From NCBI GenBank assembly GCA_032117235.1, contig JAULZW010000007.1, positions 4,091 to 68,090 of the forward strand: a DNA stretch of 64,000 nucleotides, read 5' to 3'. The notes beneath the pieces are model-generated. The model saw only the letters and a program-made list of their open reading frames with translations. It ran no database searches and was not told where the DNA came from. The position numbers and the translations under genes were made by a program. Origin of the DNA: Minisyncoccota bacterium. GTDB lineage: Bacteria; Patescibacteriota; Minisyncoccia; SW-4-49-11. Shown here in pieces: positions 1,773 to 53,496 of this stretch (positions within the stretch are counted from its first letter, which is position 1; the number at the start of each line of letters is the position of its first letter).

Positions 1773-1777
1773 ACTAA

Positions 1778-2254: not shown

Positions 2255-2256
2255 AT

Positions 2257-3078: not shown

Positions 3079-3121
3079 AAATACTAAACTAAAATTTATA
3101 TTTAATTCCAGTGAATTTGAT

Positions 3122-3151
3122 AGATAAGAGAAAATTAATTCTCTCTTATCT
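3122..3151 (-). terminator. Perfect 10-bp inverted repeat (AGATAAGAGA / TCTCTTATCT, 9-10 nt loop) immediately 3' of the major pilin gene. Candidate partial terminator or mRNA-stabilising hairpin.
   Basis: Read directly from the sequence. There is no clean U-tract after it, so it may be an attenuating or stabilising hairpin rather than a full terminator. Confidence 0.35.
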
Positions 3152-3168
3152 ACACAAAGTAACTTGAA

Positions 3169-3630
3169 TTATGGACAAGCTGTTAGTGACGAGTTAACTA
3201 TTGCCTCACCTGTAGCAAGAGTTATAAATCTTGTTGTTCCTGTACTATCTGCACAATACCAGTCAAGTTCATTAGTAGTGTTTCTAGTTCTAACTGCCAT
3301 AACCCAGAATCCAACACCACTATTACCTCTTATAGGAGTAGCTGCATCACCAGTACCCAGAGTTTCTCCATTAGTGGTAAGAGTAGTACGAAGTTGACCA
3401 ATTCTACCGGCAGTGGCAGATAGAGGGTTGAGATACTTATTAGTATTTAATGTATATCCGTCTAATTCCATAATGGATCTAAGAGAGGATAGAGCTGATT
3501 GCACAGAAGCTGCTCTACCACGACTTCTAGCACTATTTACATTTACTAATACTACTGAGGCTAAGATACCAATAATGGCAATTACCACAAGTAATTCAAT
3601 CAATGTAAATCCTTTTTGTAATTTTTTCAT
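3169..3630 (-). CDS. pilA: Major type IV pilin (PilA-like). N-terminus MKKLQKGFTLIELLVVIAIIGILA, C-terminal Cys pair.
   Basis: Canonical prepilin leader. 153 aa with C...C near the C-terminus (disulfide loop). Strong SD AAAGGAGGTG 7 nt upstream and a TATAAT -10 at 3687..3682 suggest a dedicated promoter and high expression. Confidence 0.75.
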   Translation of the reverse strand: MKKLQKGFTLIELLVVIAIIGILASVVLVNVNSARSRGRAASVQSALSSLRSIMELDGYTLNTNKYLNPLSATAGRIGQLRTTLTTNGETLGTGDAATPIRGNSGVGFWVMAVRTRNTTNELDWYCADSTGTTRFITLATGEAIVNSSLTACP

Positions 3631-3689
3631 TTTTTCACACCTCCTTTCTTTATCATATATTTACATTTATTTAATATCTTGATTATATT

Positions 3690-4907: not shown

Positions 4908-4916
4908 AAATTTTTG

Positions 4917-5987: not shown

Positions 5988-6002
5988 ATATATATTTATA
6001 TT

Positions 6003-6377
6003 TTAATTTTGAGGTAAATACTTTTGTATAGTGCGCAAAACTTCAGTTGGAGTATAATTAGATTTGACCATATAGTCTAAGGCCCCTAACTCAAAAGCCT
6101 GATTAATATCAGCTTGTGAAGACAAATTACTAAGAACTATAACTGGGATATCTTTAAACTTATCTTCCTTCTTCAACCATTTTAATATATCAAATCCACT
6201 AATGTTAGGCAGGACTAAATCTAGCAATATCAAATTTATATTATTCTTATCCAAAATAAACTTTAATTCATCTTTATTAAGTGCAGTAAATACATTTGTG
6301 TTTATTTCTTCTATTTTATTAGAATACATCTGCTTAATAAAGGGATCGTCTTCTATTAGTAGTATGTTATATTTCAT
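6003..6377 (-). CDS. Single-domain response regulator (CheY-like receiver) embedded in the pilus operon (PilH/PilG-like).
   Basis: 124 aa. Acidic pocket EDD near the N-terminus, phospho-acceptor Asp in LILLDLVLP, and a conserved Lys downstream. Confidence 0.75.
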   Translation of the reverse strand: MKYNILLIEDDPFIKQMYSNKIEEINTNVFTALNKDELKFILDKNNINLILLDLVLPNISGFDILKWLKKEDKFKDIPVIVLSNLSSQADINQAFELGALDYMVKSNYTPTEVLRTIQKYLPQN

Positions 6378-6434
6378 GATTTATATATTTATATACTGTA
6401 TTGTGTATATTATATTATAGTTTTTTAATCTTGT

Positions 6435-8150: not shown

Positions 8151-8328
8151 ATTTTGTGAATTTATTTAAAGAAATTTTTGATTACAGTAATATTATCTTC
8201 TATTTCAACTTTTTTATTCATAGAATTTAAAATTGGATTTATAATACCATATCCAAAATATAACATAATAATTATGCTTAATATAATTGTTATTGTTGTT
8301 GTGTTTATATTATACTTAAGTTTATTTT

Positions 8329-8901
8329 TCATAATGTTACATAATATGTTTTTACTCTTATTGAAGAGTTAGATTTTTGAGAAAAACCATCTACATCTAA
8401 GTTCGTGGTACCACTCACACTTTGAATATCAATATACTGTTTAGAATCAGCTAATTTAGATAGAAATGAATCTACGGAACTCTTATTACCACTAATAGCC
8501 ATATTGATGTCAATGATTTTTAATTTATTCGATTTTTCAGCACCTCCTAAAATTTCACTTGTATCTAAGTTTTCATCTTCGACATTGGATGTAGGAGCAG
8601 ATTTTTTTGTATCACCTAATTCAATACTTAAGCTAGATATGTTTACACCTGATTCTTGAGTAAAAGAATCTATTAAGTTAATTAGCTTATTCTTATCATA
8701 TTTATCTAGAACAAATTCATTACTAGATTTATACAATTTTTCTGGATTATTATCATTAAAAGCTTGTTTAAGTAGCAACTCTTTTTTCAATTTATCAATA
8801 CTTTCTAAGTCAGCAGACAGCATTGGTAGTAAATTTGAATTTACTAACCAAATTGCTATTAAAAAGATAATTATTGACAAAAGCTTAATTTGATTTGACA
8901 T
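8329..8901 (-). CDS. PilO-like pilus assembly protein (N-terminal TM anchor, periplasmic domain).
   Basis: 190 aa with a single N-terminal TM and a predicted coiled coil. Positioned between pilN-like and pilB as in pilMNO operons. Assigned by synteny and topology only. Confidence 0.4.
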   Translation of the reverse strand: MSNQIKLLSIIIFLIAIWLVNSNLLPMLSADLESIDKLKKELLLKQAFNDNNPEKLYKSSNEFVLDKYDKNKLINLIDSFTQESGVNISSLSIELGDTKKSAPTSNVEDENLDTSEILGGAEKSNKLKIIDINMAISGNKSSVDSFLSKLADSKQYIDIQSVSGTTNLDVDGFSQKSNSSIRVKTYYVTL

Positions 8902-8902
8902 A

Positions 8903-9430
8903 TTATTTTAATTTTATTTGTACATTAAAAGAAACTTTACCACCATCATCAGAATTTAAGGTAGAGAAAGTTACATTACTTATTAAAGGCAAGGCTTTAA
9001 ATGAGTCAATTTGTTTAGTTGTACTCATAAAGGATGGTGTTGACATAGCCATACTTATTTCTTTATTAACTTTATCATATGAAAACTGAGAAACGACAGC
9101 TCCTGGGATATAAGCTGACTCTATAGATTTAATAGCCGCTATTGAATCATAAGAATTATTTATTAAATCAGCAATATTAAATAAACCTTGATCTAAGTCA
9201 GTAGTTATGTAATAACTACTATTGGCATTGTCTAATTTTTCTATATCTTGAGTTATTTTAGCTTTCTCCTGAACAACAAAAAACCAATAAACAAATCCTA
9301 CTATACCAATATATACCAAAAAGAAACCTCCTAGTATATATATTAAAGTATTATCTTTACTTTTAGAGTTTAATTCGTCTAATTGCTCAAGATTTCTTTG
9401 ATTTTTGGGAATGAATTTAATAGTATCCAT
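8903..9430 (-). CDS. PilN-like pilus assembly protein.
   Basis: 175 aa with one TM (IYILGGFFLVYIGIVGFVYWFFVV) about 30 aa from the N-terminus, directly downstream of pilM. Assigned by synteny and topology. Confidence 0.45.
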   Translation of the reverse strand: MDTIKFIPKNQRNLEQLDELNSKSKDNTLIYILGGFFLVYIGIVGFVYWFFVVQEKAKITQDIEKLDNANSSYYITTDLDQGLFNIADLINNSYDSIAAIKSIESAYIPGAVVSQFSYDKVNKEISMAMSTPSFMSTTKQIDSFKALPLISNVTFSTLNSDDGGKVSFNVQIKLK

Positions 9431-9431
9431 A

Positions 9432-10499
9432 CTATTCTATATATTTTTTTAATGCCACACCTATTGACAATATTAAATCCTGCCAAATATCTACCTTCAA
9501 GTCATCATTATCAAGTCCTTTTACACTCAAGTTAGAGATTGGGGATGCAATAGAAATATTCATATTTGTATTATTAAATTGATTTTTGAATATAGAACCT
9601 ATATAATCTCTAACTCCTGTCATCTTAGATGTCCCCCCCAATATAACAACACTATTAATATCAATGTCCATTATCTCTTTCACATTTCCCAATAGTCGAA
9701 TCACATCTTTGACTATAAAAGAATTTATTTTTGACTGAATAAGCTCAGCTATTTTAGGATCTTTATTATTTACTCCATTTTCTTTTTTCAAATTTTCAGC
9801 TTCTAAAATAGAACAACCCCTCATCTGTTTTATGGATTCAGTAATTTGATTTCCCCCAAAATCAAATGATTGGATAGTTTGCAATTTCTTATAAGCATCG
9901 ACAACTATAACCGTACTATTCCTAGCACCTATATCAATAAGACAAGTATTCTCTTTAGGCAAATCAATAGATCTCAAAATTGAGAAACAATCTAATTCAA
10001 AACCCTTTACTTTAATATTTAAAGCCTTAGTTACTTCAAGATATCTATTAGCTACTGTATTAGGTACAGCTATTATCAAAATATTATACTGATCTTGAAG
10101 TTTATTCTTGCCCAGATTAATCCAATCCAATTGAACACTACTAAGTGGAACTGGAATATGCTTTTTAGCTTCCAAAGGAACTGCTGATAAAAACTCCTTC
10201 TCTTCTAATATAGGTACTTGTATAATTGCAAATAAAGCTAAATATGATGGCAGAGCTATATAAGCATTTGACATACGCATACCTGATCTTGCAGTCATAG
10301 CCTTAATTATGTCAGTTATTTTTTGAGGAGCGAGAGCCACATCGCTATCTTTTTGCTGTATTACACTATCAAGATCATCATCCCATATACTATAGTTATC
10401 AATAGAAAAGTTGTTAAGGTTATGACTAACTTCAACAATTTTTATAGTTTGAGTTCCTATATCTATCCCAAAAGATTTATTTTGTCCCAATGTAAACAT
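9432..10499 (-). CDS. pilM: Type IV pilus assembly protein PilM (actin-like ATPase fold).
   Basis: 355 aa. N-terminal FGIDIGTQTIKIV phosphate-1 motif of the FtsA/PilM actin fold. First gene of the operon. Confidence 0.75.
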   Translation of the reverse strand: MFTLGQNKSFGIDIGTQTIKIVEVSHNLNNFSIDNYSIWDDDLDSVIQQKDSDVALAPQKITDIIKAMTARSGMRMSNAYIALPSYLALFAIIQVPILEEKEFLSAVPLEAKKHIPVPLSSVQLDWINLGKNKLQDQYNILIIAVPNTVANRYLEVTKALNIKVKGFELDCFSILRSIDLPKENTCLIDIGARNSTVIVVDAYKKLQTIQSFDFGGNQITESIKQMRGCSILEAENLKKENGVNNKDPKIAELIQSKINSFIVKDVIRLLGNVKEIMDIDINSVVILGGTSKMTGVRDYIGSIFKNQFNNTNMNISIASPISNLSVKGLDNDDLKVDIWQDLILSIGVALKKYIE

Positions 10500-10556
10500 T
10501 GTATCTTTTTTATTTATATTCTATAATATTTACATTATATTACAAAATAAAAAATT

Positions 10557-11267
10557 ATGCAATATATTTTAAATAAAATCATATTGGATGCATTTTTACC
10601 AAATCAATGTGTAGCTTGTCAGAAAATTAATACTGTTAATCTTTGTAGTAATTGTTTAAACTCTATACCTAATACACCTAGCTTATGGTTAAAAGAGCAA
10701 CATTCTGTTCAGCCAATCTTTATACCTAAATCAAACACTATACCAAAAACACTGCGTAAAAACAGCTATCTAGACAGTATATTGAGTTGTACTAATTTTA
10801 AAAATCATATTGTCAAAAAAAGCATACATTACCTAAAATATAAAAATATACCTCAACTATCTCAGCCACTAGGTAGTATTATGCTAAGAGCTCTTAGTCA
10901 GAGTTTAAGAATTAAAGAAAACATTATACTATGTCCAATTCCACTACATCCAAATCGTCTTAGATTTAGAGGATATAATCAGGCTTTACTATTAACTCAA
11001 TATTTAGAATGTAAATTAAATTTACCCATATATAATGGACTTACTAGAATTAGAGATACTCCCAATCAAATGAAAATAACCGATAAAACAACTAGAATAG
11101 AGAATATGAATGATGCATTTGAAGCTAGGCAAGTAGCTGGTTCTGAGGGACAAAATATTATCATCATTGATGACGTGACTACAACTTTATCCACAATACA
11201 GCAAGCTGCCAAAGCACTTTCAAAACAAGGTTTTGCTAGTATAAATGCTTTGATTTTAGCACATTAA
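10557..11267 (+). CDS. comFC: Competence protein ComFC (phosphoribosyltransferase-like). Divergent from the pilus operon.
   Basis: N-terminal Zn-finger CVACQ...CSNCLN. C-terminal PRTase P-loop IIIIDDVTTT. Confidence 0.75.
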   Translation: MQYILNKIILDAFLPNQCVACQKINTVNLCSNCLNSIPNTPSLWLKEQHSVQPIFIPKSNTIPKTLRKNSYLDSILSCTNFKNHIVKKSIHYLKYKNIPQLSQPLGSIMLRALSQSLRIKENIILCPIPLHPNRLRFRGYNQALLLTQYLECKLNLPIYNGLTRIRDTPNQMKITDKTTRIENMNDAFEARQVAGSEGQNIIIIDDVTTTLSTIQQAAKALSKQGFASINALILAH

Positions 11268-11355
11268 GTAAAAGTTGTTGTTAATAATATTATAGTTATG
11301 ATATAATTAATATCACAGAGTATGATTACTTTGATTAATAGATAAAAACACAGAA

Positions 11356-15139: not shown

Positions 15140-16423
15140 TCACAAACTCCAATCAGATTGAATAAATTTATCTAACTTTTTATTATTAATCTTATCATCA
15201 AGACTAAAATTAAATCCTTCTATACCAGATTGTTTTTGAATTTCCAAGTCATACTTATCTAGTTTAGTCAAAGTATAATCAATTACAATATCTTTTGAAC
15301 TATTAACTGGAACTTTAATCTCAAAGCCAGCAATTTTTTTATTATAAGATGTAGTATAATCAACCTCATTCATCCTATTTTCAACACCTATAACACCATT
15401 AACAAAAGAATCCTTAGGTAATAAAACTCTAGTATAAGATTTATAATCATTATTGAGAGGTGAAGCAGATTTAGCTGTATTAATATAAGTAATAATAATT
15501 TTGGAACAAATTTTATCGCCACAGTCCCTAACATCTTTTTTTATAGATCTTTTCATATAATAATCAGTTTTCAAAGCTCCCAAATTAGCATCTACCAACA
15601 TAAAATAATCTCCCTTAATATTAGTGTCTATCTCACCGTCCCAATTTAGTTTGCTAATTTTAGCTTGAATCTTATCATCCTTACTCCAAAGTAAAATTTG
15701 CTTTTGCCGAGCCTGTTCTATAAGCATATTTCCAAGTTTATATAATGTTTGAGGAGAAGCTTTGCGAATTTTATTCTCCATCTGAACTGCTAAATTTTTA
15801 ATTGGCTCTTTACGGTCAGAACGACTTATACCCTTTTCAGCAAATCCAAAATTCAATTCATACTGTACAGATAATAATACATTTTCCGCATTCAATGCAC
15901 CCTCTATTCCTTCAACATATATTGGCCCAATAATCTTTAATATTTCTGGTAAAATAGAAGCATTAAATCCAATAATTCCAGCTATATCTTGAGTCCCCCC
16001 CTCCAATTTATATAAGTCTATAATTTGTTTAGCCGTAGTTGGAAAATCAGGAGACCAATTTGAATCTCTTAATTGCATTGTATTTATACCCAACATATTT
16101 TTATAAGCATCTGGAGCCTCGATACCAGGTTTACCATAATCAAAAACATTTGTATTATAAATAGTATATTTTTTAATTTTACCAGAATTCAAAGTAACTT
16201 CCGCAAAATTTCCAATATAACCTCCTGTTGGTCTTAATTCCAAAGTATTCTGAAATATAACTAAATAAGTAACTTCTTTTTGTGACCTAATAGAATTAAT
16301 AAGATCCAATTCCAACCTATATTTAGACCAGAAAATTGCAATCACAATTATAGCTACAATTACAATAACTACAAATATTAAAGATATAATTTTGAATATA
16401 TTCTTTTTAGAGAAAGACCTCAT
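15140..16423 (-). CDS. DUF4012-family membrane-anchored protein (function unknown, associated with polysaccharide clusters).
   Basis: 427 aa. N-terminal TM, conserved RPTGGYIGNF and DSNWSPDFP motifs shared with the paralog at 51193..53496. Immediately upstream of a GT4 gene. Confidence 0.55.
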   Translation of the reverse strand: MRSFSKKNIFKIISLIFVVIVIVAIIVIAIFWSKYRLELDLINSIRSQKEVTYLVIFQNTLELRPTGGYIGNFAEVTLNSGKIKKYTIYNTNVFDYGKPGIEAPDAYKNMLGINTMQLRDSNWSPDFPTTAKQIIDLYKLEGGTQDIAGIIGFNASILPEILKIIGPIYVEGIEGALNAENVLLSVQYELNFGFAEKGISRSDRKEPIKNLAVQMENKIRKASPQTLYKLGNMLIEQARQKQILLWSKDDKIQAKISKLNWDGEIDTNIKGDYFMLVDANLGALKTDYYMKRSIKKDVRDCGDKICSKIIITYINTAKSASPLNNDYKSYTRVLLPKDSFVNGVIGVENRMNEVDYTTSYNKKIAGFEIKVPVNSSKDIVIDYTLTKLDKYDLEIQKQSGIEGFNFSLDDKINNKKLDKFIQSDWSL

Positions 16424-16427
16424 ACAA

Positions 16428-17636
16428 TCAATATCTTAAAGCCGTATTAACCTGTATCCCAGCTCCACGATATTGACTAGAGTCTCTATAATACACATTC
16501 TCTACAGCCTTAACTATATTATTCCAAGAATAGTGATACTTTATTTCACCCTGTAACATCTCAGATAATTCTAATGCCCCTTTATAGTCACATAACAAAT
16601 TATCCAATTGATGCTTCAGGGAAATTACATTATTAACTCTGGCAACATGTGCTAAATCTCCCACAACCTCTATATTTTCCCTTATATCTGAAACTATAAT
16701 TGGGACACCATAACTACCTGCTTCTAATAATGAAATAGACAACCCTTCCGAAGAGGATGGTAAAACATAAACCGCTGCATTAGCAAATAATTGTTTCAGA
16801 GTTCTACCTGATTGATGACCCGTAAAAATAATATTTTTATCATTATTAGCTAAATTATGTAAATACTTTTCATATTCAGGAGTAAAAGCTCCAGAGCCTA
16901 CAATCACTAGTTTTTTATTATACTTACGAGTCATCTGCTGATAAGCTTGAATCAAAATATGAGCATTTTTATGCTTAACTAGCCTTGCAATAAAAACAAT
17001 ATACCCCCTCTTCTTCAACCCAAATTGAGCCAATTCAGAATCAGAAGTAATATGATTAAAATCTGTACCATTAGGAATATAGGTTGTTTTAATATCAAAT
17101 TCTTTATTAACAAAATACCTAAGACTTTTAGACACCGTAATCACCTCATCAGCAAAATTACAACCCATCCAAGCACCTAGCTTGAGCATAGACTTAGCAA
17201 AAAGATTCCATTTCCCATGATACCAATCCGCACTATGAAAGGTAAATGCAACTTTAGTATATTTGCCACCCAAAATATACTTCAGACCAAACCCAATTCT
17301 AGCAAAAAGAGTAAAAAAAGCAGGTCCAACCGAATTAATATGCAAAACATCCAAGTCAGGAATAAAAAAACTATGCCAAATAGAAGTAAGGGTATGAGTT
17401 CCCGCATCTAGACTTTTAGTAGGAATAGAAGACGTAGCAATAACCTCCACTCCTTTATAATTACCTTCTGGAGCATAAGCTTTACGGGTATACACAATAA
17501 TATCATGACCCCGCCGAGCAAGTCTTACTGCAATATGCTCAACATAATTCTCAACCCCTCCACCAGAAGTTGCAGGTATACCTTTTTGCCCAACAAAAGC
17601 AATTTTCATGACTTGCAAAAATTTAACTATAGTCAT
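16428..17636 (-). CDS. Glycosyltransferase family 4 (GT-B fold).
   Basis: 402 aa. C-terminal EGLSISLLEAGSYGVPIIVSD (the E-X7-E-like region of GT4 retaining transferases). Confidence 0.8.
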   Translation of the reverse strand: MTIVKFLQVMKIAFVGQKGIPATSGGGVENYVEHIAVRLARRGHDIIVYTRKAYAPEGNYKGVEVIATSSIPTKSLDAGTHTLTSIWHSFFIPDLDVLHINSVGPAFFTLFARIGFGLKYILGGKYTKVAFTFHSADWYHGKWNLFAKSMLKLGAWMGCNFADEVITVSKSLRYFVNKEFDIKTTYIPNGTDFNHITSDSELAQFGLKKRGYIVFIARLVKHKNAHILIQAYQQMTRKYNKKLVIVGSGAFTPEYEKYLHNLANNDKNIIFTGHQSGRTLKQLFANAAVYVLPSSSEGLSISLLEAGSYGVPIIVSDIRENIEVVGDLAHVARVNNVISLKHQLDNLLCDYKGALELSEMLQGEIKYHYSWNNIVKAVENVYYRDSSQYRGAGIQVNTALRY

Positions 17637-17736
17637 AAACCGTCATAATTTATGATACCATAAAAATCTATTTTTGTCAAAAAATTATAGCAATCACAAG
17701 TCTATAAAAACGACTCCCCCTGACGACTTAGCGTAA

Positions 17737-17747
17737 GGGGGGGGGGG
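17737..17747. repeat. G11 homopolymer (followed by AGG) just inside the left edge of the GC-rich island. A C5 run lies 17 nt upstream.
   Basis: Read directly. C5...G11 could pair as a hairpin. Long poly-G is also a known two-colour Illumina artefact and a slipped-strand hotspot. Confidence 0.9.
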
Positions 17748-17837
17748 AGGGACAAAAGTGGTATTCAGTTTTTAGTATTTAGTTTTTCAGACTAACTCCC
17801 GGCCTCCAAGGGGGAGTGTATGTGCTTAGTATAGACT

Positions 17838-18413
17838 TTAACTGTAAGTCTCTTCTCCTCTCAAAATGGCTAGTGCTTTGGGCATCATATGGGGTTCATA
17901 GACCCTAATAACTGCTAAAGGTGAAAGGAATCTCCGCTCAATCGTTGCTCCTAACCTATAATCACTACTATCATCAACCCTCTTCCAAGCTAGGTCAGAT
18001 ACGAACAACATAAAGCTTTTGTTGTTCCACTGCTGTTCCATAGTAGGATCAGTAGCAGGAGCTGAAGTATATTTAGTTGTGTGGATAGTAGTTGTGTGGA
18101 TAGAGTTTTTTGTACTGCTATCGTAGGGAACGGGTGTTGATGCCAGAACGGGCGCTGGAGCGGTGGCAACTGATGCAGGCGCTGGAGCGGTGGCAACTGG
18201 TGCCGGTGCTGGAGCGGTGGCAACTGGTGCCGGTGCTGAGGCTGGTATTAGCTCAGATTGTAAAATCCCTTGCCTCTGTCGAGAGCTTTGGATCATACTT
18301 TGAATATCTAACACATCTGCTTTCACAGAAGAGTGGACTTCACTCGCAGCTACAGGAGCTGCAAAGAGCAGGACTGCCGTTGTAAACAGCCCTATAAGAA
18401 ATCGGTTTCTCAT
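17838..18413 (-). CDS. Small secreted protein with a Pro/Ala-rich tandem repeat (APAPVAT units). Foreign GC-rich codon usage. The likely true start is the ATG at 18413, not the TTG at 18494.
   Basis: Signal peptide MRNRFLIGLFTTAVLLFAAPVAASEV begins at an internal ATG preceded by GAGGT. The track's TTG start is the TTGACA -35 hexamer of the promoter. The N-terminal half is about 60% GC. Confidence 0.5.
   Translation of the reverse strand: MRNRFLIGLFTTAVLLFAAPVAASEVHSSVKADVLDIQSMIQSSRQRQGILQSELIPASAPAPVATAPAPAPVATAPAPASVATAPAPVLASTPVPYDSSTKNSIHTTTIHTTKYTSAPATDPTMEQQWNNKSFMLFVSDLAWKRVDDSSDYRLGATIERRFLSPLAVIRVYEPHMMPKALAILRGEETYS
18140..18240. repeat. Tandem 27-nt repeat, about 3.5 copies (CTGGAGCGGTGGCAACTGRTGCMGGYG), encoding APAPVAT/APAPAPVAT/APAPASVAT on the minus strand.
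   Basis: Read directly. Units differ at 2-3 positions. Confidence 0.6.
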
Positions 18414-18465
18414 TGAAACCTCAATAGGACTAATGGACGGCAGCCGACATACTGCCTTGTGGTGA

Positions 18466-18494
18466 TTTATAACATATTTTGTAACTTTTGTCAA
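18466..18494 (-). promoter_or_regulatory. Sigma70-type promoter TTGACA-N17-TATAAA for the 17838..18413 gene.
   Basis: Minus-strand read: TTGACAaaagttacaaaatatgtTATAAA, with the ATG about 50 nt downstream. Confidence 0.4.
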
Positions 18495-18561
18495 TAAATT
18501 ACAAAGATATTTATGTTTTATAAAAAAATAAACTCCTATATTAGGTTATAGTAGTTAGGTA

Positions 18562-18594
18562 TAAAAAAACCACCCTCAACTCTGTGCTGAGGGC
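18562..18594 (-). terminator. Rho-independent terminator after the 18608..19237 gene: CCCTCA-N9-TGAGGG stem followed by a U7 run on the minus strand.
   Basis: Read directly. Minus strand reads CCCTCAGCACAGAGTTGAGGGtggTTTTTTTAT. Confidence 0.5.
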
Positions 18595-18607
18595 GTGATG
18601 TGATGGA

Positions 18608-19237
18608 TCAGTTGTTTTTAGTAAGGAGGCTTGTGGCTTCCTCGTATCTCCCCTGATTAGCAGCTTGGTCGGCTGCTGCGAGGTTGGGATGATGATTGCC
18701 GGCCCGCTTTCTAGCCTTTCTATAGGCATCCTGAGCTTCCTCAGAAGCCGCAAAGCCTTTAAAAGATTCCCTACGTAAAACCTCTCGAGTTTTCAGTGCC
18801 CAATCAAGCTCTTTTTCGCGAAGGAGCTGACTATTAAGGGCTTCACACGAGATGATCGTGTCAGCTCTTACTGAATCGAGGTGGCGGCTAAACTCTTCTT
18901 CTGGAAGGTTTGGCTGAACTGTCGTACTATTCAAGCCTCCGCTCACCCCAGTTCCGAAGAGGGAGAAGGCTGCAGAACCCCCAGTGGAGTTGATATTAGC
19001 AGCCTTGCTCACCACAAGGCGAGATTTAAGGACAACAATCTGTCCGTTGTAGAGGCAGGGGAAGCTGTCCTCCCTCTCAAAACTAGACCTCCCCTCTTGG
19101 CCAGGAGCACCCGGAAATCCGGGCGCAATGGCAGGTGATACTGGGGCTCTATATTCCCAAGCTTTCGCTGGGAGAATAGCCCCAGCCCCAATGACAAAAG
19201 TGGCTAAATACAGCTGAAATCGAGTTAGATTTCTCAT
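18608..19237 (-). CDS. Secreted hypothetical protein (209 aa, signal peptide MRNLTRFQLYLATFVIGAGAILPAKA). Foreign GC-rich codon usage.
   Basis: ORF with a clear Sec signal and AXA cleavage site. About 55-58% GC with C-ending codons against a genome of about 30%. The upstream leader is CU-rich with no SD. Confidence 0.5.
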   Translation of the reverse strand: MRNLTRFQLYLATFVIGAGAILPAKAWEYRAPVSPAIAPGFPGAPGQEGRSSFEREDSFPCLYNGQIVVLKSRLVVSKAANINSTGGSAAFSLFGTGVSGGLNSTTVQPNLPEEEFSRHLDSVRADTIISCEALNSQLLREKELDWALKTREVLRRESFKGFAASEEAQDAYRKARKRAGNHHPNLAAADQAANQGRYEEATSLLTKNN

Positions 19238-19277
19238 GAGAGGACGACGAGGAGATATGGTTTTGAGGGCTAAAGGG

Positions 19278-19336
19278 ACTCTTTAGCACCTTTTAATATA
19301 TATCTACACTGAATATACTAAAAGGTGCTAAAGAGT
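19278..19336. repeat. Perfect 18-bp inverted repeat (ACTCTTTAGCACCTTTTA ... TAAAAGGTGCTAAAGAGT) with a 23-nt loop, in the AT-rich spacer between two island genes.
   Basis: Verified base by base (19278-19295 against 19319-19336). It lies inside the predicted 5' leader of the 18608..19237 gene. A T-run follows on the plus strand. Confidence 0.6.
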
Positions 19337-19422
19337 ATTTTTATCAAAAACCTATCTCTATAAAGATTTAATTATAAATGAGCATCAAATTGGTATAAAT
19401 TATGAATTAATACCATAGGCGG

Positions 19423-19451
19423 AATATAACACAAAATTTTAATTCTGTCAA
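19423..19451 (-). promoter_or_regulatory. Candidate sigma70 promoter TTGACA-N17-TATATT, about 180 nt upstream of the 18608..19237 start.
   Basis: Minus-strand read: TTGACAgaattaaaattttgtgtTATATT. The implied long leader contains the 18-bp hairpin. Confidence 0.35.
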
Positions 19452-19499
19452 ATCATAACAACATCATTGTTATATATTTATAAGTAAAAGAGCCCGCTC

Positions 19500-19531
19500 A
19501 TACATGGGTATGAACGGGCGGGTAAGGTGCT
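19500..19531 (-). terminator. Rho-independent terminator after the 19545..19970 gene (GCCCGTTCAT-N8-ATGAGCGGGC, then TCTTTTACTT).
   Basis: Read directly. 10-bp stem with one mismatch and a U-rich tail. Confidence 0.45.
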
Positions 19532-19544
19532 GAGCAACGAGGGC

Positions 19545-19970
19545 TCAGTGAAGAGAACCACAAGGAGCAGGTGCGTGGTGAACAGGCACGTTGCCCACCA
19601 GGGGTGGGCGTGACCGTTGACCCTGCTGGGAGCAGGTGGCGGGCTGAAGCCGAAGTTGCGTTCCAGCACCAACAAGCAAAACAGGATATCCGGTCTCCGG
19701 TTCAATGAACCGGGTGGCCCCAGGGAAGTTGATGTGGTTGTTGTTGGTCCACAGATCAGGACCGACCTCAACTCCTGCTGTCACCCGGCAACCGTTGTTG
19801 ACGCGGCAATAATGCTGCGCGGCGGATATCGATACGTAGGTTCTGGCCGTCGAGTTGAGAGGCCCCACAGCTACCCGGGGGTAGATTGCCTGAGCCCTGG
19901 CGGGGACGATGGTGGCGGAAGCCACCAGAACGCCGGTGATGATGGCATTGAACTTGGAACGTTTATTCAT
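19545..19970 (-). CDS. Small secreted Cys-containing hypothetical protein (141 aa, signal peptide MNKRSKFNAIITGVLVASATIVPARAQA). Foreign GC-rich codon usage.
   Basis: Sec signal with AXA site, 4 Cys in the mature part. Third codon positions are strongly C/G (atC acC gcC ttC...). Confidence 0.5.
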   Translation of the reverse strand: MNKRSKFNAIITGVLVASATIVPARAQAIYPRVAVGPLNSTARTYVSISAAQHYCRVNNGCRVTAGVEVGPDLWTNNNHINFPGATRFIEPETGYPVLLVGAGTQLRLQPATCSQQGQRSRPPLVGNVPVHHAPAPCGSLH

Positions 19971-19996
19971 GGCATTGCCACGAGGTTTACGAAAAC

Positions 19997-20025
19997 ACTA
20001 TAGCATATTTTATACATTTTGTCAA
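19997..20025 (-). promoter_or_regulatory. Near-consensus sigma70 promoter TTGACA-N17-TATAGT for the 19545..19970 gene.
   Basis: Minus-strand read: TTGACAaaatgtataaaatatgcTATAGT, 26 nt upstream of the ATG. Confidence 0.45.
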
Positions 20026-20036
20026 GAGTAAAGAGC

Positions 20037-20066
20037 AAAAAAAATACCGGCCCTCGAGAGAACCGG
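20037..20066 (-). terminator. Rho-independent terminator after the 20087..20614 gene (ACCGG-N12-CCGGT, then AUUUUUUUU).
   Basis: Read directly. Minus strand reads ACCGGttctctcgagggCCGGTATTTTTTTT. Confidence 0.5.
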
Positions 20067-20086
20067 TTTGAGAATATTGTTGACAC

Positions 20087-20614
20087 CTAGTTACACAGAA
20101 ACCTTACACGCCCATTGTCATATATACATCCACCTCTTCTATGCCAAGTTGGGGCGGGATGTCTCTCATAATTAGAAGGAGATCTGTTACCCCATGTATG
20201 ATTCGAGTAATTTATGAATATATGTGTTCTAGTACTTTCATTAAAGCCTCTATACCCATCACAGTGGCCTAAAATTTGTATAACTAAAGAACAAATATCA
20301 GAATATGGTCTAATTCCTGTTCTTATTATAATACCATTGTACTCAATCTTTTCTAGCCTGGGTTGATTATCATAGTAATTCTGATTATTCCCACTCCTAT
20401 AATGGTAATTTCTTCTATTTATTTCTCTACAATAGTTATTTTCTGGGCTACACCAATTTCCTTGTTGCCAATAACCATCGTTGGCAAGAACCGGAGCTGA
20501 TGGAATAATCCAAAATGACACTGCGAGACAAATGGATTTCAGAGAAGAAAGTTTCATTGGGGTTAATTCCCTAGAGAACAACTTCACCATAGCATAAATA
20601 GCAATATTTAGCAA
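20087..20614 (-). CDS. Small secreted Asn/Tyr/Arg/Cys-rich hypothetical protein with native AT-rich codon usage. Possible start at the internal Met (MKLSSLKSICLAVSFWIIPSAPVLA).
   Basis: ORF with a signal peptide. Low-complexity N/Y/R-rich mature region with 6 Cys. Confidence 0.45.
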   Translation of the reverse strand: MLNIAIYAMVKLFSRELTPMKLSSLKSICLAVSFWIIPSAPVLANDGYWQQGNWCSPENNYCREINRRNYHYRSGNNQNYYDNQPRLEKIEYNGIIIRTGIRPYSDICSLVIQILGHCDGYRGFNESTRTHIFINYSNHTWGNRSPSNYERHPAPTWHRRGGCIYDNGRVRFLCN

Positions 20615-20625
20615 TAGCTGTATTA

Positions 20626-21700: not shown

Positions 21701-23095
21701 TCAATTCTGCTGATTAAACTTATTTTGGAGCTGATTATAATGCAATACCCCTCCTAATAATAGGAATAATAACCACATCAAAACTGTGCCTCGGAGTAAA
21801 TTATCCCAAAAGCTCACAACATATATAATGGTCATCAAAACTGCTATTGTTAAAATATAGATATTTTTACCTTTTATATATCTATAGTACAATGTAAAAA
21901 GTATATTAATGATTATAGCTAAATATATTATCAAACCTATAATTCCTTGTTCTAAAAAGATTTTAATATAGTCATTATGTACTTCTACTGAGCCTCTATA
22001 AGTACCTCTAGTCTGCTCAATAATAGTCTCAGAGCTACCTGTCCCAAAACCTATAATTGGAGACTCTAAAGCTTTATTATAAGCATCCCGCCACATATTC
22101 AATCGCCATATAACTGAATCACTTGGATCAGAGTTAAACAAACCTGTTACTCTATTAATTACAGGTATTTTGCTTAATGAAGGCAAGTCTAGAATATTGG
22201 TTGAGGCCAAAAAATTATAAGTGAAAATTAAAACTATACTTAAAACAATTAATACTGAACTAATTTTAAGGGTTTTCAATGGATATTGAAACGAACTCAT
22301 TAAAAATACAAATAAAATAAGGCCGAACCAAGCACCTCTTGTGAAAGTTATCAATAAGACAATTACATATAAACATCCAATAATACCAAATATTTCTCTT
22401 TCTAATTTCAATATTTGATTATTTTTATAAAACCATATTACACTAATCAAGGCCAGTATAATTACCGAATAATAAGCTAATACATTAGGATGCCCAAAAG
22501 TAGCTGATATACGATTTTCAAAACCTGGATTAGTATACAGTCCACTGCCAGAAAAATATTCAATATAAGCAACAATTAATGGGATAATACTCCCATAGAT
22601 AATTACTCTAATGATATTAAAAAATTTATTTTGTTTATTCACATATATCCAACCCACAAAATACAATACTATAAAACTCAGAAGTCGAATTGTCTCTTGA
22701 AAACCAGCTAATTTAGAAATACCAGTTAAAGTTAGTCCTATATAAATAAATAATACTATTATTAAGCTTTTTATAAGTGGTATATTAGTATTATTAAATA
22801 TTGTCCTGTTTTTATAAATATATATAAAAGATATTATTATTGTAAAGATAGCAATACTAGGACTTAAAGTAATCATAGGCCAGTCTGGCAAACTCAAATA
22901 TCCAATAATATCTATAGATGGTCTTATAAAAATAAGTGTTAATAAAGCTGATTCCAATGAAACTAATATTAGTAATAACAATAGCCACATTATAATACTA
23001 AATAAAAATATAACTGGCGATATATCTAATACAATACAAAGCAGTAAATTGATACCTCCAAGTACCAATATAATTTTAGAATTTATTTGAGTCAT
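21701..23095 (-). CDS. O-antigen ligase / polymerase family membrane protein (Wzy_C domain).
   Basis: 464 aa with about 10-12 TM segments. TRGAWFGLILFVFLM motif within a large periplasmic loop, as in WaaL/Wzy. Confidence 0.6.
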   Translation of the reverse strand: MTQINSKIILVLGGINLLLCIVLDISPVIFLFSIIMWLLLLLILVSLESALLTLIFIRPSIDIIGYLSLPDWPMITLSPSIAIFTIIISFIYIYKNRTIFNNTNIPLIKSLIIVLFIYIGLTLTGISKLAGFQETIRLLSFIVLYFVGWIYVNKQNKFFNIIRVIIYGSIIPLIVAYIEYFSGSGLYTNPGFENRISATFGHPNVLAYYSVIILALISVIWFYKNNQILKLEREIFGIIGCLYVIVLLITFTRGAWFGLILFVFLMSSFQYPLKTLKISSVLIVLSIVLIFTYNFLASTNILDLPSLSKIPVINRVTGLFNSDPSDSVIWRLNMWRDAYNKALESPIIGFGTGSSETIIEQTRGTYRGSVEVHNDYIKIFLEQGIIGLIIYLAIIINILFTLYYRYIKGKNIYILTIAVLMTIIYVVSFWDNLLRGTVLMWLLFLLLGGVLHYNQLQNKFNQQN

Positions 23096-23828
23096 ATTCA
23101 GTATCTGGAGTAATGTTTGGGGTGTTTTCTGAGTCTAGAATTGGGTTATGCCCCATTGTTACATCATCTGGTATAGGCGGAGATACTATATCTTCAATTC
23201 CAAAATCATAAATAATAGTATTATCCTTCCGTGTTATAACATACCCTATCCCTACCATAAATCCTAGTATAGCTGAGCCGAATAAATTTACCAGAATATT
23301 GGGTCTTCCCACTCCTTCATATAAAGCTGGCTGATTAACTATTTGTACATTAGCTGTTTCACCAAGTAGTGATTTGGCCTGGTCTGTTAATTTGTTAACC
23401 ACAGTTTTGTTCATATTCAAAGCTAATTCAGAGGATTTGTCATAAGTATCTACTGAGATAAATCCTGAACCTAAAGCTCTTGTGACAATGTTTCTAGCAA
23501 ACAATGTTCTTCTGTCTTTTAAATTTTCTGGAAATAGATTCTTTATATTTGTATTTTCTGCAATAACATTAGTGAAAAACACATCCGTATAAACTAAATC
23601 TATTAACAAATTGACATTCGAGTCAATAGATCTCTGAGCGGTATAAGAGTCAATATTAGGATTGGCTTTTTGCAATAAAACTAATTTAGATTCAGCCTTA
23701 TACTGTTTTGGTAAAAGCAAAGTTATTATCAGACCAACTAGTATAAATAATAATGTTATAATTACAATTGTATTAAATTTTTTTGTAGTCTTGGCTGCTA
23801 TTTCATTTAAATTCATACCTGAATTCAT
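23076..23828 (-). CDS. Polysaccharide chain-length determinant (Wzz/Cap5A-like).
   Basis: 250 aa. N-terminal and C-terminal TM helices flank a soluble domain, with the C-terminal GxxxG-like GFMVGIGYVI. The 3' end overlaps the downstream gene by 20 nt. Confidence 0.5.
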   Translation of the reverse strand: MNSGMNLNEIAAKTTKKFNTIVIITLLFILVGLIITLLLPKQYKAESKLVLLQKANPNIDSYTAQRSIDSNVNLLIDLVYTDVFFTNVIAENTNIKNLFPENLKDRRTLFARNIVTRALGSGFISVDTYDKSSELALNMNKTVVNKLTDQAKSLLGETANVQIVNQPALYEGVGRPNILVNLFGSAILGFMVGIGYVITRKDNTIIYDFGIEDIVSPPIPDDVTMGHNPILDSENTPNITPDTEYDSNKF

Positions 23829-50248: not shown

Positions 50249-51187
50249 TTATATTATTTTCATTTTTTCGTGCAGGTATACAACTTCTTCTTCTATATAA
50301 ACACCAAATTCTTGCCAAACCTTATCCTTTACCATCTGAATTAGTTTCACAACATCTGCAAAACTACCATTTCCAGTATTAATCATATAATTAGCATGCT
50401 TATCACTAACTTGTATTCCTCCACAACTGATACCTTTTAACCCAGCTTTTTCTATCAAATATCCACTTGGAATAACACCCTTTTCAACAAATTTATCTAG
50501 ATCTGGATATTTATTATAGAGTGATATATCAATATCCCCTTCATAATTCTTAAAGATACATCCTGAGCAAGCTACTCCAATTGGCTGATTTTTATTTTTT
50601 CTAATAATATTATCCCTTACCAATTTTTGACTAATTGCAACATCTCCGGTTTCTAATTCAAATAATCCCCCTAGAATAATGTCTTTATTGTCCTCTGCTT
50701 TAAATGAGCTATATCTATAATGAAAATCTAATGCATTAGCTTCAATATCAATAATTTGTCCATCTCTATATATTCTAACTTGCTTTAATCTATCTTTAGT
50801 TTCACCTCCAAATGCACCAGCATTACCTCGAATTGCACCCCCCAAACTAGATGGGACAGATGGAGCCCATTCAAGACCGGTTAAATTATTTTTATGCCCA
50901 AAAGCAGTAAGGGCAGCCAAAGACACACCTGCTTCTGCAAAAAGTAAAGTATCACTTATATTAATAGCTCTAGTGTTCATTTTTAAGATAAGACCATCAA
51001 TGTTTTCATCCGTAATCAGAAGGTTACAACCAGCTCCAATAATTCCAACTGGGAAGTGTCTTTCCTGAGCGAATCTTAGAGCGGAGATTACATCATCATT
51101 ACTTTCAGCAAAAACAACATATTGAGCCCTCCCTCCTATCTTAAAAGTTGATAAATCTTTTAGTAATATATTTTCCTTTATGTTCAT
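50249..51187 (-). CDS. murB: UDP-N-acetylenolpyruvoylglucosamine reductase.
   Basis: 312 aa. FAD-binding N-terminal domain (LSTFKIGGRAQYVV...GAGCNLLI). Confidence 0.8.
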   Translation of the reverse strand: MNIKENILLKDLSTFKIGGRAQYVVFAESNDDVISALRFAQERHFPVGIIGAGCNLLITDENIDGLILKMNTRAINISDTLLFAEAGVSLAALTAFGHKNNLTGLEWAPSVPSSLGGAIRGNAGAFGGETKDRLKQVRIYRDGQIIDIEANALDFHYRYSSFKAEDNKDIILGGLFELETGDVAISQKLVRDNIIRKNKNQPIGVACSGCIFKNYEGDIDISLYNKYPDLDKFVEKGVIPSGYLIEKAGLKGISCGGIQVSDKHANYMINTGNGSFADVVKLIQMVKDKVWQEFGVYIEEEVVYLHEKMKII

Positions 51188-51192: not shown

Positions 51193-53496
51193 CTACTTAA
51201 TTTGAACTCCTATATATTCATCTGTTCTCAATACTCCGTCTGTAACTTTATACCCCGTCTCCGTACTTTCAAGGTCAAAAGACGACTCTTTCCAAATTGA
51301 CTTTTTATTTTTAGGTAAGTCCAAACTATATTGATATTTTATTCCCAAAGCACCCGATTGCTTCTGTAAAATTAAAGAATATATATCATAAGACTTAAAC
51401 TTAAATGGTAATTCATATTCTATCATAACTTGGCTAGTTTCTCCAGGTTTAGTAAACACCCAACCACCTATTACTAATTTTCCACTTTCTTCAAAAACAT
51501 CAATATCCCAGTCTTCATTATGAAATAAAGTTGCATTAATAGCTTTTAAATCAGAATCTTGTTCGTAACCCGCCACACCTTCTAATATTTCTTTTTCAAC
51601 TTTATCTTTATATCCGGAAACATTAAGGATACGAGACCCCTTAGGAATATATGTTCTCATATAATTTATATTATCCTGATTCCACCATTCAAATTCAGTA
51701 TCTCCTCCCTTATGCTCTCTACTAACTATAACTTTATTAATAGCATTACCCTTATCTTCTATTTTGGTAGATATGCTCAAATTCTCTTGCATTACTCCAT
51801 CTGTTTTATACCCACCAATATTACTATGTACAACAGACAAGTAATCCTCTGGGGCATCATATAATTGACCACCTAAATTATATTTATTAACCATATCCTG
51901 TAATTTTGTATCTAAAAAATATAATAACACTTGCTTCTCTTGAAATGAATTATTTAACGTCTCTATAATTTTTTGGTATTGATTAGCATCTGATGACAAT
52001 AATTTATTTATTAATATAGGAGCTAAGTCGGCTATAAATTGTTTTGGTTTATTTTTAACCTTATCATAAGCTACCCCAGTCTGATATTGAGTTATCTTAA
52101 CAAAATTATCTGCATTAATAGTAATATTGTAGTCTTCTAGTGTTATTGGGCCTGTGATTAAAAGCAATCTCTCTATTACAGTGGGGGTTAAAGAAATCAC
52201 CCCATCTGGAGTTGCTCCACCTGTTTTTTCATAAAATGAAATTATTTTCTGAGCACTTGTGGGAAAATCTGCAAACCAATTTGAATCTCTTAGGTACCAA
52301 CGAGTAGTTAATTCTTGTAATGGAGCAGGAGCTAAAATATTTTTCGCCAATTGACCGTCTGGATTATATATTTCTTTAATATCTAGACTTTTTACTACCC
52401 CTCTATCAATATTCATCATTCCAAAACTACCGATAAATCCACCTGTTGCCCTTAACTCTTGATTATTCTGGAATATAAAAACATATCTTTTCAAAATATC
52501 ACTCCCTACAAAATTAAGAAATATGTCAATATAAGGATCAGAGTTAATAATAGCTTCCTTTAATTTGGGAATATCTTGATTTAATTGACGCAAAACAGAT
52601 CCTTTGTGTCCAGGAACTAAATTAATAGGTAATTTACCAAGGTTAATATGTAACTCATGTAGGGCTGGGATTAGTTTTTGATTTAATTCTTTAATTTTTT
52701 TAATACCATCCACCATAGTAATTGGCTTAGTATTATCAAAAGGGTTAATTTCCTTAGATATAAATGGCTCCATTGTATCTGATAACTCACCTGTAATAGA
52801 TATGACTTCTGATACATTAGAAGTTAAATCACTACCATCTTGTATAATAGATAATCCTGGCAAAATGGATAATAATATACTGAGATTACCCTGTATAGAC
52901 GCTATATCTTCGGCACTATTATCAATACCATTCGCTATCTCATTTAATGATGTAGCTAAAGTATTAAAATTTTCAATATTAGTAGATTTTAATAAATTTT
53001 CACTAGCAGCTGCTTGTAAGAGCAGATTGTCTTTCACTCTAATGCCATTATTTGCCATATTAAGTGACGGTATACTAATTACCATTATAAGACATATTGA
53101 TATAAACACCGCCATAGAAGCCCTAGCAGCATAAATAGACTGTTTATTAATTATTAATAATTTTTTTATTCGATGAAAAGACTTATATCTATCATAGTTA
53201 TATTTTTTTGCTGATTTTGGTATAAATTCTATTCTAATAGGAGTTGATATGTTTATATATTTTTCTGGTTCTATGTAATCATTCTGTGAATCATCATATA
53301 ACGGTAACTCAAACTCTAATAAGTCTATATTCTTATTGTGATTGACATTATCATCTCTTATTAAAGGAACTTCAAAGTTTGCAAGAGAATTAATATCTTT
53401 TGGTAAGTTAGATTTTTTATAAATAGACTTTTTTTCTGCTCTAGATTCGATTTGAATTTTTCTTAAGTCAACAATCGATGAGCTTTTTTTTATCAT
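51193..53496 (-). CDS. Large DUF4012-family protein with an N-terminal extension of about 340 aa (paralog of 15140..16423).
   Basis: 767 aa. TM at about residues 125-145. Conserved RATGGFIGSFG and DSNWFADFPTSAQKI motifs align with RPTGGYIGNFA and DSNWSPDFPTTAKQI of the smaller paralog. Followed by a GT4 gene. Confidence 0.55.
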   Translation of the reverse strand: MIKKSSSIVDLRKIQIESRAEKKSIYKKSNLPKDINSLANFEVPLIRDDNVNHNKNIDLLEFELPLYDDSQNDYIEPEKYINISTPIRIEFIPKSAKKYNYDRYKSFHRIKKLLIINKQSIYAARASMAVFISICLIMVISIPSLNMANNGIRVKDNLLLQAAASENLLKSTNIENFNTLATSLNEIANGIDNSAEDIASIQGNLSILLSILPGLSIIQDGSDLTSNVSEVISITGELSDTMEPFISKEINPFDNTKPITMVDGIKKIKELNQKLIPALHELHINLGKLPINLVPGHKGSVLRQLNQDIPKLKEAIINSDPYIDIFLNFVGSDILKRYVFIFQNNQELRATGGFIGSFGMMNIDRGVVKSLDIKEIYNPDGQLAKNILAPAPLQELTTRWYLRDSNWFADFPTSAQKIISFYEKTGGATPDGVISLTPTVIERLLLITGPITLEDYNITINADNFVKITQYQTGVAYDKVKNKPKQFIADLAPILINKLLSSDANQYQKIIETLNNSFQEKQVLLYFLDTKLQDMVNKYNLGGQLYDAPEDYLSVVHSNIGGYKTDGVMQENLSISTKIEDKGNAINKVIVSREHKGGDTEFEWWNQDNINYMRTYIPKGSRILNVSGYKDKVEKEILEGVAGYEQDSDLKAINATLFHNEDWDIDVFEESGKLVIGGWVFTKPGETSQVMIEYELPFKFKSYDIYSLILQKQSGALGIKYQYSLDLPKNKKSIWKESSFDLESTETGYKVTDGVLRTDEYIGVQIK

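Follow-up and report, generated by a model that had tools for sequence, protein, structure and literature searches.

The window analysed here, a 64,000-nucleotide (nt) stretch of a Minisyncoccota genome (GenBank contig JAULZW010000007.1, positions 4,091 to 68,090), contains two genes for proteins of the DUF4012 family, which we refer to as the short and the long type, and each of these lies beside a gene for a family 4 glycosyltransferase (GT4-A at locus 1, GT4-B at locus 2; Table 1). A preliminary description of the window had located these four open reading frames (ORFs) and named their products, and Pfam searches bear out both their positions and their identities: the two DUF4012 proteins exceed the 28-bit gathering cut-off of PF13196, a domain present in all 240 DUF4012 homologues among the matches listed, each GT4 protein matches both half-domains of that GT-B-fold family (Glyco_transf_4 and Glycos_transf_1) above cut-off, and the motif blocks quoted for them (RPTGGYIGNF / RATGGFIGSF and DSNWSPDFPTTAKQI / DSNWFADFPTSAQKI) are found as given. 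The partners are separated by 4 nt in the short pair and by 10 nt in the long pair. It had also been stated that the GT4 gene follows the DUF4012 gene on the same strand; adjacency and common strand hold, but since all four genes are encoded on the reverse strand, each GT4 gene is transcribed ahead of its DUF4012 gene, not after it.

Two DUF4012 paralogues with different GT4 partners

The topology of both DUF4012 proteins is that of type II membrane proteins: a cytoplasmic N-terminus, short in one copy and long in the other, precedes one transmembrane (TM) helix. The N-terminal anchoring proposed for them corresponds to a single hydrophobic helix in each copy, and basic residues stand ahead of this helix, so that the C-terminus faces out. 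The long copy does possess an additional N-terminal region, measured here at 335 amino acids (aa) as against the approximately 340 first given. By BLASTP, aa 53-417 of the short copy and aa 338-734 of the long copy align with 30% identity over ~375 aa (E 1e-36). As this alignment covers the entire extracytoplasmic part, the paralogy extends far beyond the TM anchor, and the objection that the two proteins might resemble each other only in that anchor does not apply.

GT4-A and GT4-B share 24% identity across their C-terminal 232 aa, about half their length (E 4e-14), and belong to different subfamilies; consequently, the two pairs do not derive from one duplicated block. We therefore reject a recent block duplication, and with it the “duplicated pairing” of the preliminary description, in favour of two different GT4 subfamilies, each with a DUF4012 subtype of its own. 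Only the DUF4012 gene has been duplicated, and anciently so. The N-terminal half of GT4-A has weak similarity to DUF1972 and to Cps2T-like (rhamnosyltransferase-like) proteins, and the NCBIfam Cps2T model aligns with GT4-A over its full length (7e-20) at a score far under the cut-off; neither GT4-A nor GT4-B reaches any NCBIfam equivalog cut-off. Pfam matches labelled “GT4-conflict” were considered as signs of a defence system and set aside, as we take them to reflect generic GT4 similarity.

Conservation of the GT4 pairing

To place the two pairs among their relatives, genes were called and neighbours labelled in 80 genome loci containing relatives of the short copy and in 71 metagenome loci containing relatives of the long copy. 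Metagenome-assembled genomes of Paceibacteria, Parcubacteria and Moraniibacteriota, which belong to the Candidate Phyla Radiation (CPR), supply the closest homologues and loci, and the window is accordingly placed in the CPR as well. A same-strand GT4 gene stands directly upstream (-1) in 38 of the 61 long-type loci that have an upstream gene, and every one of these 38 is an orthologue of GT4-B rather than of GT4-A (35-80% identity, full length); none was labelled directly downstream (+1). For the short type, 50 of 78 loci have a GT4-A-type gene at one of the two positions next upstream, either -1 (17 loci) or -2 (33 loci). The intervening gene, found at -1 of DUF4012 in 39 short-type loci, encodes an unannotated protein of ~350 aa (in Moraniibacteriota; e.g. 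L068:4572-5624), with two TM segments, a long charged cytoplasmic C-terminal tail and no Pfam match. Its HHalign probability against the Wzz-like protein of the window is 95.3%, and on this profile match it is a diverged Wzz/polysaccharide co-polymerase (PCP)-like protein. We considered whether this neighbour and the N-terminal extension of the long copy might be split and fused counterparts of one another, and rejected the idea (HHalign probability 1.3%), the neighbour being Wzz-like.

Each GT4 subtype stays directly upstream of the matching DUF4012 subtype down to ~28-35% DUF4012 identity. A relative at 40-44% identity also carries both modules together on one 1.17-Mb contig, with synteny as in the window: the short module reads Wzy, GT4, variable region, GT4, DUF4012 and then a convergent RecG, and the long module reads GT4, DUF4012, MurB, PrsW, Hsp20. 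These are, consequently, two old and separately conserved modules, in which, throughout the CPR, a given DUF4012 subtype goes with one particular GT4 subtype. The expectation that the adjacency would be conserved in other genomes thus proves correct within the CPR, in a subfamily-specific form, yet it is qualified by the low number of short-type loci with a GT4 immediately at -1 (17 of 72) and fails further afield: a Rhodococcus plasmid carries DUF4012 near flippase, pyruvyl-transferase and GDP-fucose genes with no GT4 immediately adjacent, and a replicon of Eubacterium eligens carries it with no GT4 nearby.

This loss outside the CPR is among the observations that would suit a trivial explanation, namely that compact genomes pack genes tightly and that DUF4012 is unrelated to the GT4 product. 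Gaps of 4-10 nt are found throughout the window, and the UvrD-like helicase and RecG genes that also neighbour the pairs are clearly unrelated to them. However, packing does not account for the recurrence of the same GT4 subtype upstream of the same DUF4012 subtype over such sequence distances, for the lack of any labelled GT4 at +1 of the long type, or for the persistence of the pair while the flanking genes vary among relatives, and we regard it as highly improbable.

Cell-envelope gene context

Genes for cell-envelope synthesis recur around both subtypes, as had been proposed at the outset. Locus 1 contains Wzz, Wzy_C and a third GT4 besides the pair, and locus 2 contains MurB. In relatives, the genes downstream of the short type are rmlC, rmlB and rmlD, or the series trmD-ftsW-murG-murC-murB, whereas long-type loci have murD-ftsW directly upstream (10 loci), a MurJ-family flippase at +1 (21 loci) or MurB at +1 (11 loci, and likewise in a relative at ~40% DUF4012 identity). 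More distant relatives (24-25% identity) show the arrangement Wzc-like Wzz-kinase, low-molecular-weight (LMW) phosphotyrosine phosphatase (Wzb), DUF4012.

A string murD, ftsW, DUF4012, murJ, lepA is seen in the distant long-type loci L116, L117, L121, L122, L127, L129-L133 and L140, and a DivIC-like gene stands further on in other loci; a string resembling a division and cell-wall cluster is an unusual place for an uncharacterised gene.

In streptococcal cps loci, the gene cpsA, which encodes an LCP (LytR-CpsA-Psr) protein, stands beside the Wzz and kinase genes. A hidden Markov model (HMM) built from 120 LCP proteins detected no canonical LCP gene, either among the window's proteins or among those of the 151 related loci and, by analogy with the streptococcal arrangement, DUF4012 appears to occupy the slot beside the Wzz/kinase genes in which cpsA would stand.

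Several features of locus 1 and its distant relatives recall the Wzx/Wzy capsule loci of Gram-positive bacteria (cpsA-cpsB-cpsC-cpsD-cpsE ... wzy, wzx). A Wzz-like, a Wzy_C and a GT4 gene lie on one strand, so that both a Wzy-type polymerase and a Wzz/PCP protein are present, and the distant DUF4012 loci carry a Wzc-like kinase and an LMW phosphatase. Locus 1 differs from such clusters in its lack of a detected kinase or phosphatase gene, in that a GC-rich cassette encoding small, secreted-looking proteins breaks it up, and in having DUF4012 in place of the LCP gene.

An association of DUF4012 with the cell envelope is not in itself new, since both its enrichment in the CPR and its link to capsular polysaccharide (CPS) and exopolysaccharide (EPS) clusters have been published (PMC6744442, PMC5412050). 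The family, fam000574 of Meheust et al. 2019, is described in the former as enriched in CPR and Gram-positive bacteria with a suspected envelope function (PMC6744442), which fits the CPR origin of the window. In Bifidobacterium longum 105-A, the DUF4012 gene BL105A_0406 is conserved in the EPS cluster, within a block of priming transferase, DUF4012 and wzz with rml genes nearby, and an LCP gene goes unmentioned in that report (PMC5412050). Around DUF4012 in the window there are likewise glycosyltransferases and a Wzz-type protein, joined in relatives by rml genes. The present case differs from that of B. longum in that two subtypes coexist in one genome, each with a dedicated GT4, and in that the long subtype occupies not an EPS cluster but a peptidoglycan-synthesis context (MurB in the window; FtsW and MurJ in relatives). 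The accessible literature naming the family yielded no proposal concerning its fold or mechanism. What we add is the pairing of each subfamily with a GT4 of its own, the placement near division/cell-wall genes and MurJ in the CPR, the true extent of the conserved unit, a list of invariant residues and a borderline LCP-like fold.

Extent of the family and its invariant residues

A profile search of 1.84 billion representatives recovered 13,080 DUF4012 representatives at 50% clustering, placing the family among the larger uncharacterised envelope families. Matches span profile positions ~40-425, and the conserved unit is therefore ~380 aa long. The Pfam model, with 144 positions (matching aa 50-184 of the short copy and aa 336-472 of the long copy), covers only the first third of this unit, which also includes a C-terminal beta-sandwich with the motif QKQSG. 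In the AlphaFold2 model of the short copy, for which the predicted local distance difference test (pLDDT) score is 93 and the predicted template-modelling score 0.88, the predicted layout is a TM anchor with its N-terminus inside (aa ~11-33), an alpha/beta domain (~47-270) and the beta-sandwich (~270-427). The model of the long copy is poor (pLDDT 66.6), with low confidence exactly at the invariant loops.

About 25 positions are near-invariant in both subfamilies. Those invariant or conserved in at least 85% include N59, E62, R64, G67, G68, D95, D120, N122, W123, K205, D272, N280, K285, D287, R332, Q396, K397, Q398 and G400. The motifs of the family are QNNxELRxTGG[FY]IG (containing E62 and R64), RDSNWxxDFP, N..G.KTD and QKQSG, and the conserved positions include the blocks D120-x-N122-W123, N280..K285-x-D287 and Q396-K397-Q398-x-G400. 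As most of these residues are charged or polar, the signature suggests a catalytic site, and thus that DUF4012 proteins may be enzymes.

An alternative is that DUF4012 is a non-catalytic scaffold or co-polymerase partner which organises or regulates Wzy/Wzz or FtsW/MurJ, for example by setting chain length or by coupling polymer export to wall growth. Such a role would be in keeping with the regular proximity of DUF4012 to Wzz-like proteins or Wzc/Wzb, with the failure of sequence comparisons to assign DUF4012 to any recognised catalytic family, and with the architecture of the long type, whose ~185-aa helical segment and tail with conserved motifs could bind partners. However, so many near-invariant positions, a large share occupied by Asp, Glu, Arg, Lys, Asn or Gln, maintained over the whole set of representatives, would be unusual in a pure scaffold; moreover, the first 335 aa of the long copy are not Wzz-like (HHalign probability 1.5%), and the short type lacks the helical extension entirely. 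We consequently consider a scaffold role unlikely.

Comparison with LCP enzymes

When the short-copy model was compared with the Protein Data Bank (PDB) using Foldseek, eight chains from four LCP proteins (Lmo1026, Lin1025, TagV/YvhJ and Cps2A; entries 3nro, 3owq, 3nxh and 3tep/4de8/2xxq/3tel) were recovered, with E-values of 3.5e-4 to 1.1e-3, probabilities of 0.99-1.0 and 215-256 aligned columns. With matches assigned to domains by their aligned length and target fold, LCP proteins (PF03816) are the only recurrent matches of the N-terminal alpha/beta domain, while the matches of the C-terminal beta-sandwich, to beta domains in M1 aminopeptidases, Wbp1/OST48 and lpg2210, are uninformative. The LCP fold is alpha-beta-alpha with a central sheet of 5-7 strands. 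In the DUF4012 alpha/beta domain the elements run three-strand meander, helix, strand, helix, strand, three helices, strand, helix, strand, an order which we take to be co-linear with that of the LCP domain. The residues of Cps2A that engage pyrophosphate and Mg2+ are R267, R362, R374, D234 and D246; in DUF4012, the invariant E62, R64, D95, D120, K205 and R332 are at most putative counterparts.

LCP enzymes are TM-anchored, Mg-dependent phosphotransferases that move polyprenyl-pyrophosphate-linked glycopolymers to peptidoglycan, and in their active sites conserved Arg and Asp side chains are clustered (PMC7831098). DUF4012 resembles them in its N-terminal TM anchor and extracytoplasmic alpha/beta domain, in its richness in conserved Arg, Asp and Lys residues (the equivalence of positions being only putative), and in its neighbours, which are the Wzz/kinase genes in clusters of the Wzy type and, close by, genes for rhamnose and peptidoglycan. 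It differs in lacking the LCP signature motifs GxD, RSD, PRD, RxR and GDxGRxxRQ, in place of which it has motifs of its own, and in possessing the extra C-terminal beta-sandwich; sequence homology is undetectable and the catalytic equivalence hypothetical.

A number of results weigh against an LCP-like activity coupled to the GT4, beginning with the fold matches themselves, which are borderline (TM-scores of 0.35-0.45 by target length, root-mean-square deviations of 6-13 A). The long-copy model gave beta-sandwich matches and none to LCP folds. At the sequence level, a Pfam scan found no PF03816 match, the DUF4012 profile search retrieved no LCP among PDB sequences at E <= 10, and the LCP HMM did not match DUF4012 proteins. 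An HHalign comparison of 157 DUF4012 with 120 LCP sequences gave P = 0.004 when the TM helices were included, a value that came largely from TM-to-TM matching and that we therefore do not accept as evidence of homology; once the helices were removed, the match was not significant (P = 0.039, probability 1.3%). Pfam, NCBIfam, profile, HMM and trimmed HHalign comparisons all fail to support sequence homology between DUF4012 and LCP, which we therefore discount as evidence. In addition, the long subfamily does not retain R119 and R204, the residues that would correspond to two catalytic arginines of LCP: the consensus at the R119 column is H, and the R204 column, occupied by P484 in the long copy of the window, is not conserved. 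The loss of GT4 adjacency outside the CPR belongs on the same side, as does the composition of locus 1, in which we found neither a flippase nor a priming phosphoglycosyl transferase. No MurJ/Wzx-like protein was detected in the window by phmmer, where the only multi-TM ORFs are Wzy and four whose position and length suggest PrsW, VKOR, prepilin peptidase and PilC; the flippase and the priming transferase may be encoded elsewhere in the genome.

DUF4012 might also process glycans outside the membrane by a chemistry other than ligation, as a hydrolase, lyase, transglycosylase or polymer-release enzyme whose substrate would be the glycopolymer or peptidoglycan. Catalysis of the glycosidase type would be compatible with the invariant acidic residues E62, D95, D120, D272 and D287, carbohydrate binding could fall to the large C-terminal beta-sandwich, and peptidoglycan-synthesis genes are among the neighbours. 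Yet neither Pfam nor the best 50 PDB matches include a glycoside hydrolase, lyase or lytic transglycosylase, and LCP is the only enzyme family that the alpha/beta domain matches, which makes a different chemistry of this kind improbable.

A proposed role for DUF4012

That DUF4012 is an extracytoplasmic enzyme of envelope-glycopolymer synthesis, functionally coupled to the GT4, is in our view probable and, at this general level, well supported. On this reading, each DUF4012 gene would be co-transcribed with the gene for a cytoplasmic GT4 of the matching subfamily. For its specific activity, we consider an LCP-like ligase, which transfers glycan to peptidoglycan, to be the best single hypothesis, albeit a tentative one. 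In such a pathway, the GT4, working at the cytoplasmic face of the membrane, would extend a lipid-linked precursor by a sugar, and the precursor would then be flipped (by a MurJ/Wzx-type flippase in relatives) and, at locus 1, undergo Wzy/Wzz-type polymerisation. DUF4012 would act on the resulting lipid-pyrophosphate-linked glycan outside the membrane, at a late step of cell-wall glycopolymer assembly, and its step would most likely be the movement of the glycan onto peptidoglycan, as performed by LCP ligases. The product of the short-type module could be a Wzy-dependent, possibly rhamnose-containing polymer, and that of the long-type module a polymer made in step with peptidoglycan synthesis, given MurB, FtsW and MurJ as its neighbours.

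A broader form of the ligase hypothesis, which we hold to be doubtful, is that DUF4012 constitutes a second family of glycopolymer-to-cell-wall ligases, either evolutionarily distinct or extremely diverged, that replaces LCP in the CPR and in many Actinobacteria, Firmicutes, Chloroflexi and Cyanobacteria, and that in the CPR is wired into the division/cell-wall cluster (murD-ftsW-DUF4012-murJ; GT4-DUF4012-murB) as a core enzyme of wall assembly in ultrasmall bacteria.

If DUF4012 does fix wall polysaccharides to peptidoglycan, it would fill a gap in our understanding of how CPR and many monoderm bacteria build their surface, which is central to the episymbiotic lifestyle of the CPR and to the host interactions of bifidobacteria, and it would represent a new extracellular enzyme target. 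The proposal is testable in that it names candidate catalytic residues (E62, R64, D95, D120, K205, K285 and R332) and partners (the dedicated GT4, the Wzz-like protein, MurJ and FtsW), and tractable hosts exist in B. longum, Rhodococcus and Streptomyces.

Organisation of the two loci

Along the reverse strand, locus 1 reads Wzz-like, Wzy_C-family, GT4-like, GC-rich cassette, GT4-A and short DUF4012, the 3' end of the last being convergent with RecG. The Wzz-like protein also matches TIGR01006 (8e-8), under the cut-off, and the Wzy_C-family protein is, judging from its domain, a repeat-unit polymerase or an O-antigen-ligase-like protein. Their ORFs share 20 nt (23076-23095), an overlap that suggests translational coupling. 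The third GT4-like gene has 74% identity to a gene in the relative locus L001.

Table 1 Coordinates of the DUF4012 genes, their partners and associated features in the window
Feature	Coordinates	Strand	Basis or remarks
DUF4012 protein, short type, 427 aa	15140..16423	-	ORF; PF13196, 89.8 bits
GT4 glycosyltransferase “A type” (GT4-A), 402 aa	16428..17636	-	Pfam Glyco_transf_4 + Glycos_transf_1
Near-consensus sigma-70-like site, TTGACA-17-TATCAT with TG (extended -10)	17652..17680	-	11/12 positions; consensus match only
GC-rich cassette, four small ORFs	about 17700..20620	-	Composition; ORFs 17838-18494, 18608-19237, 19545-19970, 20087-20614
Third GT4-like glycosyltransferase, 356 aa	20626..21696	-	Pfam Glyco_trans_1_4 + Glycos_transf_1, about 2e-8
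Wzy_C-family membrane protein, 464 aa, ~10 TM segments	21701..23095	-	PF04932, 70 bits
Wzz/PCP-like chain-length determinant, 250 aa, 2 TM segments	23076..23828	-	PF02706, 30.4 bits (cut-off 25.5)
MurB (UDP-N-acetylenolpyruvoylglucosamine reductase)	50249..51187	-	Pfam MurB_C + FAD_binding_4; 5 nt downstream of long DUF4012
DUF4012 protein, long type, 767 aa	51193..53496	-	ORF; PF13196, 103.5 bits
Conserved DUF4012 core, long copy aa 336-767	51196..52491	-	Homologous to short-copy aa 53-417
Extracytoplasmic helical region, long copy aa 150-335	52492..53049	-	Model helices 174-203, 216-246, 261-288, 296-329
Single TM helix, long copy aa ~120-149	53050..53139	-	Hydrophobicity scan; model helix 118-170
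Cytoplasmic tail, long copy aa 1-119	53140..53496	-	Predicted disordered, pLDDT < 50
GT4 glycosyltransferase “B type” (GT4-B), 379 aa	53507..54646	-	Pfam Glyco_transf_4 + Glycos_transf_1

A distance of 16 nt separates the near-consensus site from the GT4-A start downstream of it. The site ranks in the top three of its kind in 9.2 kb, and a scan for terminator-like sites found none inside GT4-A or the short DUF4012 gene. This combination fits a two-gene GT4-DUF4012 operon, of which the site is a candidate promoter.

The cassette that separates the Wzz-Wzy-GT4 genes from the GT4-DUF4012 pair has a GC content of 46-49%, as against ~30% elsewhere. Its four ORFs have signal-peptide-like N-termini and no Pfam matches, and one of them contains APAPVAT repeats. 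Two of the cassette ORFs, like GT4-A, have a near-consensus TTGACA-17-TATAxT site with TG ahead of them, and GC-rich terminator-like hairpins lie downstream of three. The relatives L001-L004 have a stretch of 48-57% GC in the same position, the ORFs of which are partly homologous (65% and 46% identity), and in a more distant relative this position is taken by a variable region that gives a weak match to an IS200-like transposase. Given that its position is conserved in relatives, we reject the possibility that the cassette is an assembly chimera; likewise, a structured RNA is rejected, as there is no Rfam match at E <= 0.1. The cassette may encode surface proteins, on which the products of the flanking glycosylation genes might act. 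In Actinomyces oris, LcpA glycosylates the surface protein GspA and, by analogy, one may speculate that the short-type module could act in the same way on the small secreted proteins of the cassette.

Locus 2 reads, along the reverse strand, UvrD/AddA-like helicase, GT4-B, long DUF4012, MurB, PrsW and Hsp20. Within the long copy, the helical region is conserved in the long subfamily, with relatives at ~35% identity covering ~83% of the query. In an alignment of 41 relatives, the cytoplasmic tail shares with its relatives the short motifs [IV]xDLR, F.[IV]PL and [IF]xF[IV]P.SAK, and it may be a docking site for cytoplasmic partners. The tails of distant long-type proteins begin MFDVRPV..GDLD..[KR]I and contain the motifs LDLR, LPTKEEIL and FYFPE; that of the window copy retains IVDLR, FEVPL and IEFIPKSAKKY.

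Elsewhere, positions 1-11300 included, the content of the window is typical of the CPR. It includes a type IV pilus gene set (two T2SSE ATPases, a PilC-like T2SSF protein, PilM, a prepilin peptidase and N_methyl pilins), two RNase J paralogues, VKOR and the ribosomal proteins L1, L10, L11 and L7/L12, and a ribonucleotide reductase is encoded at 58012-61988.

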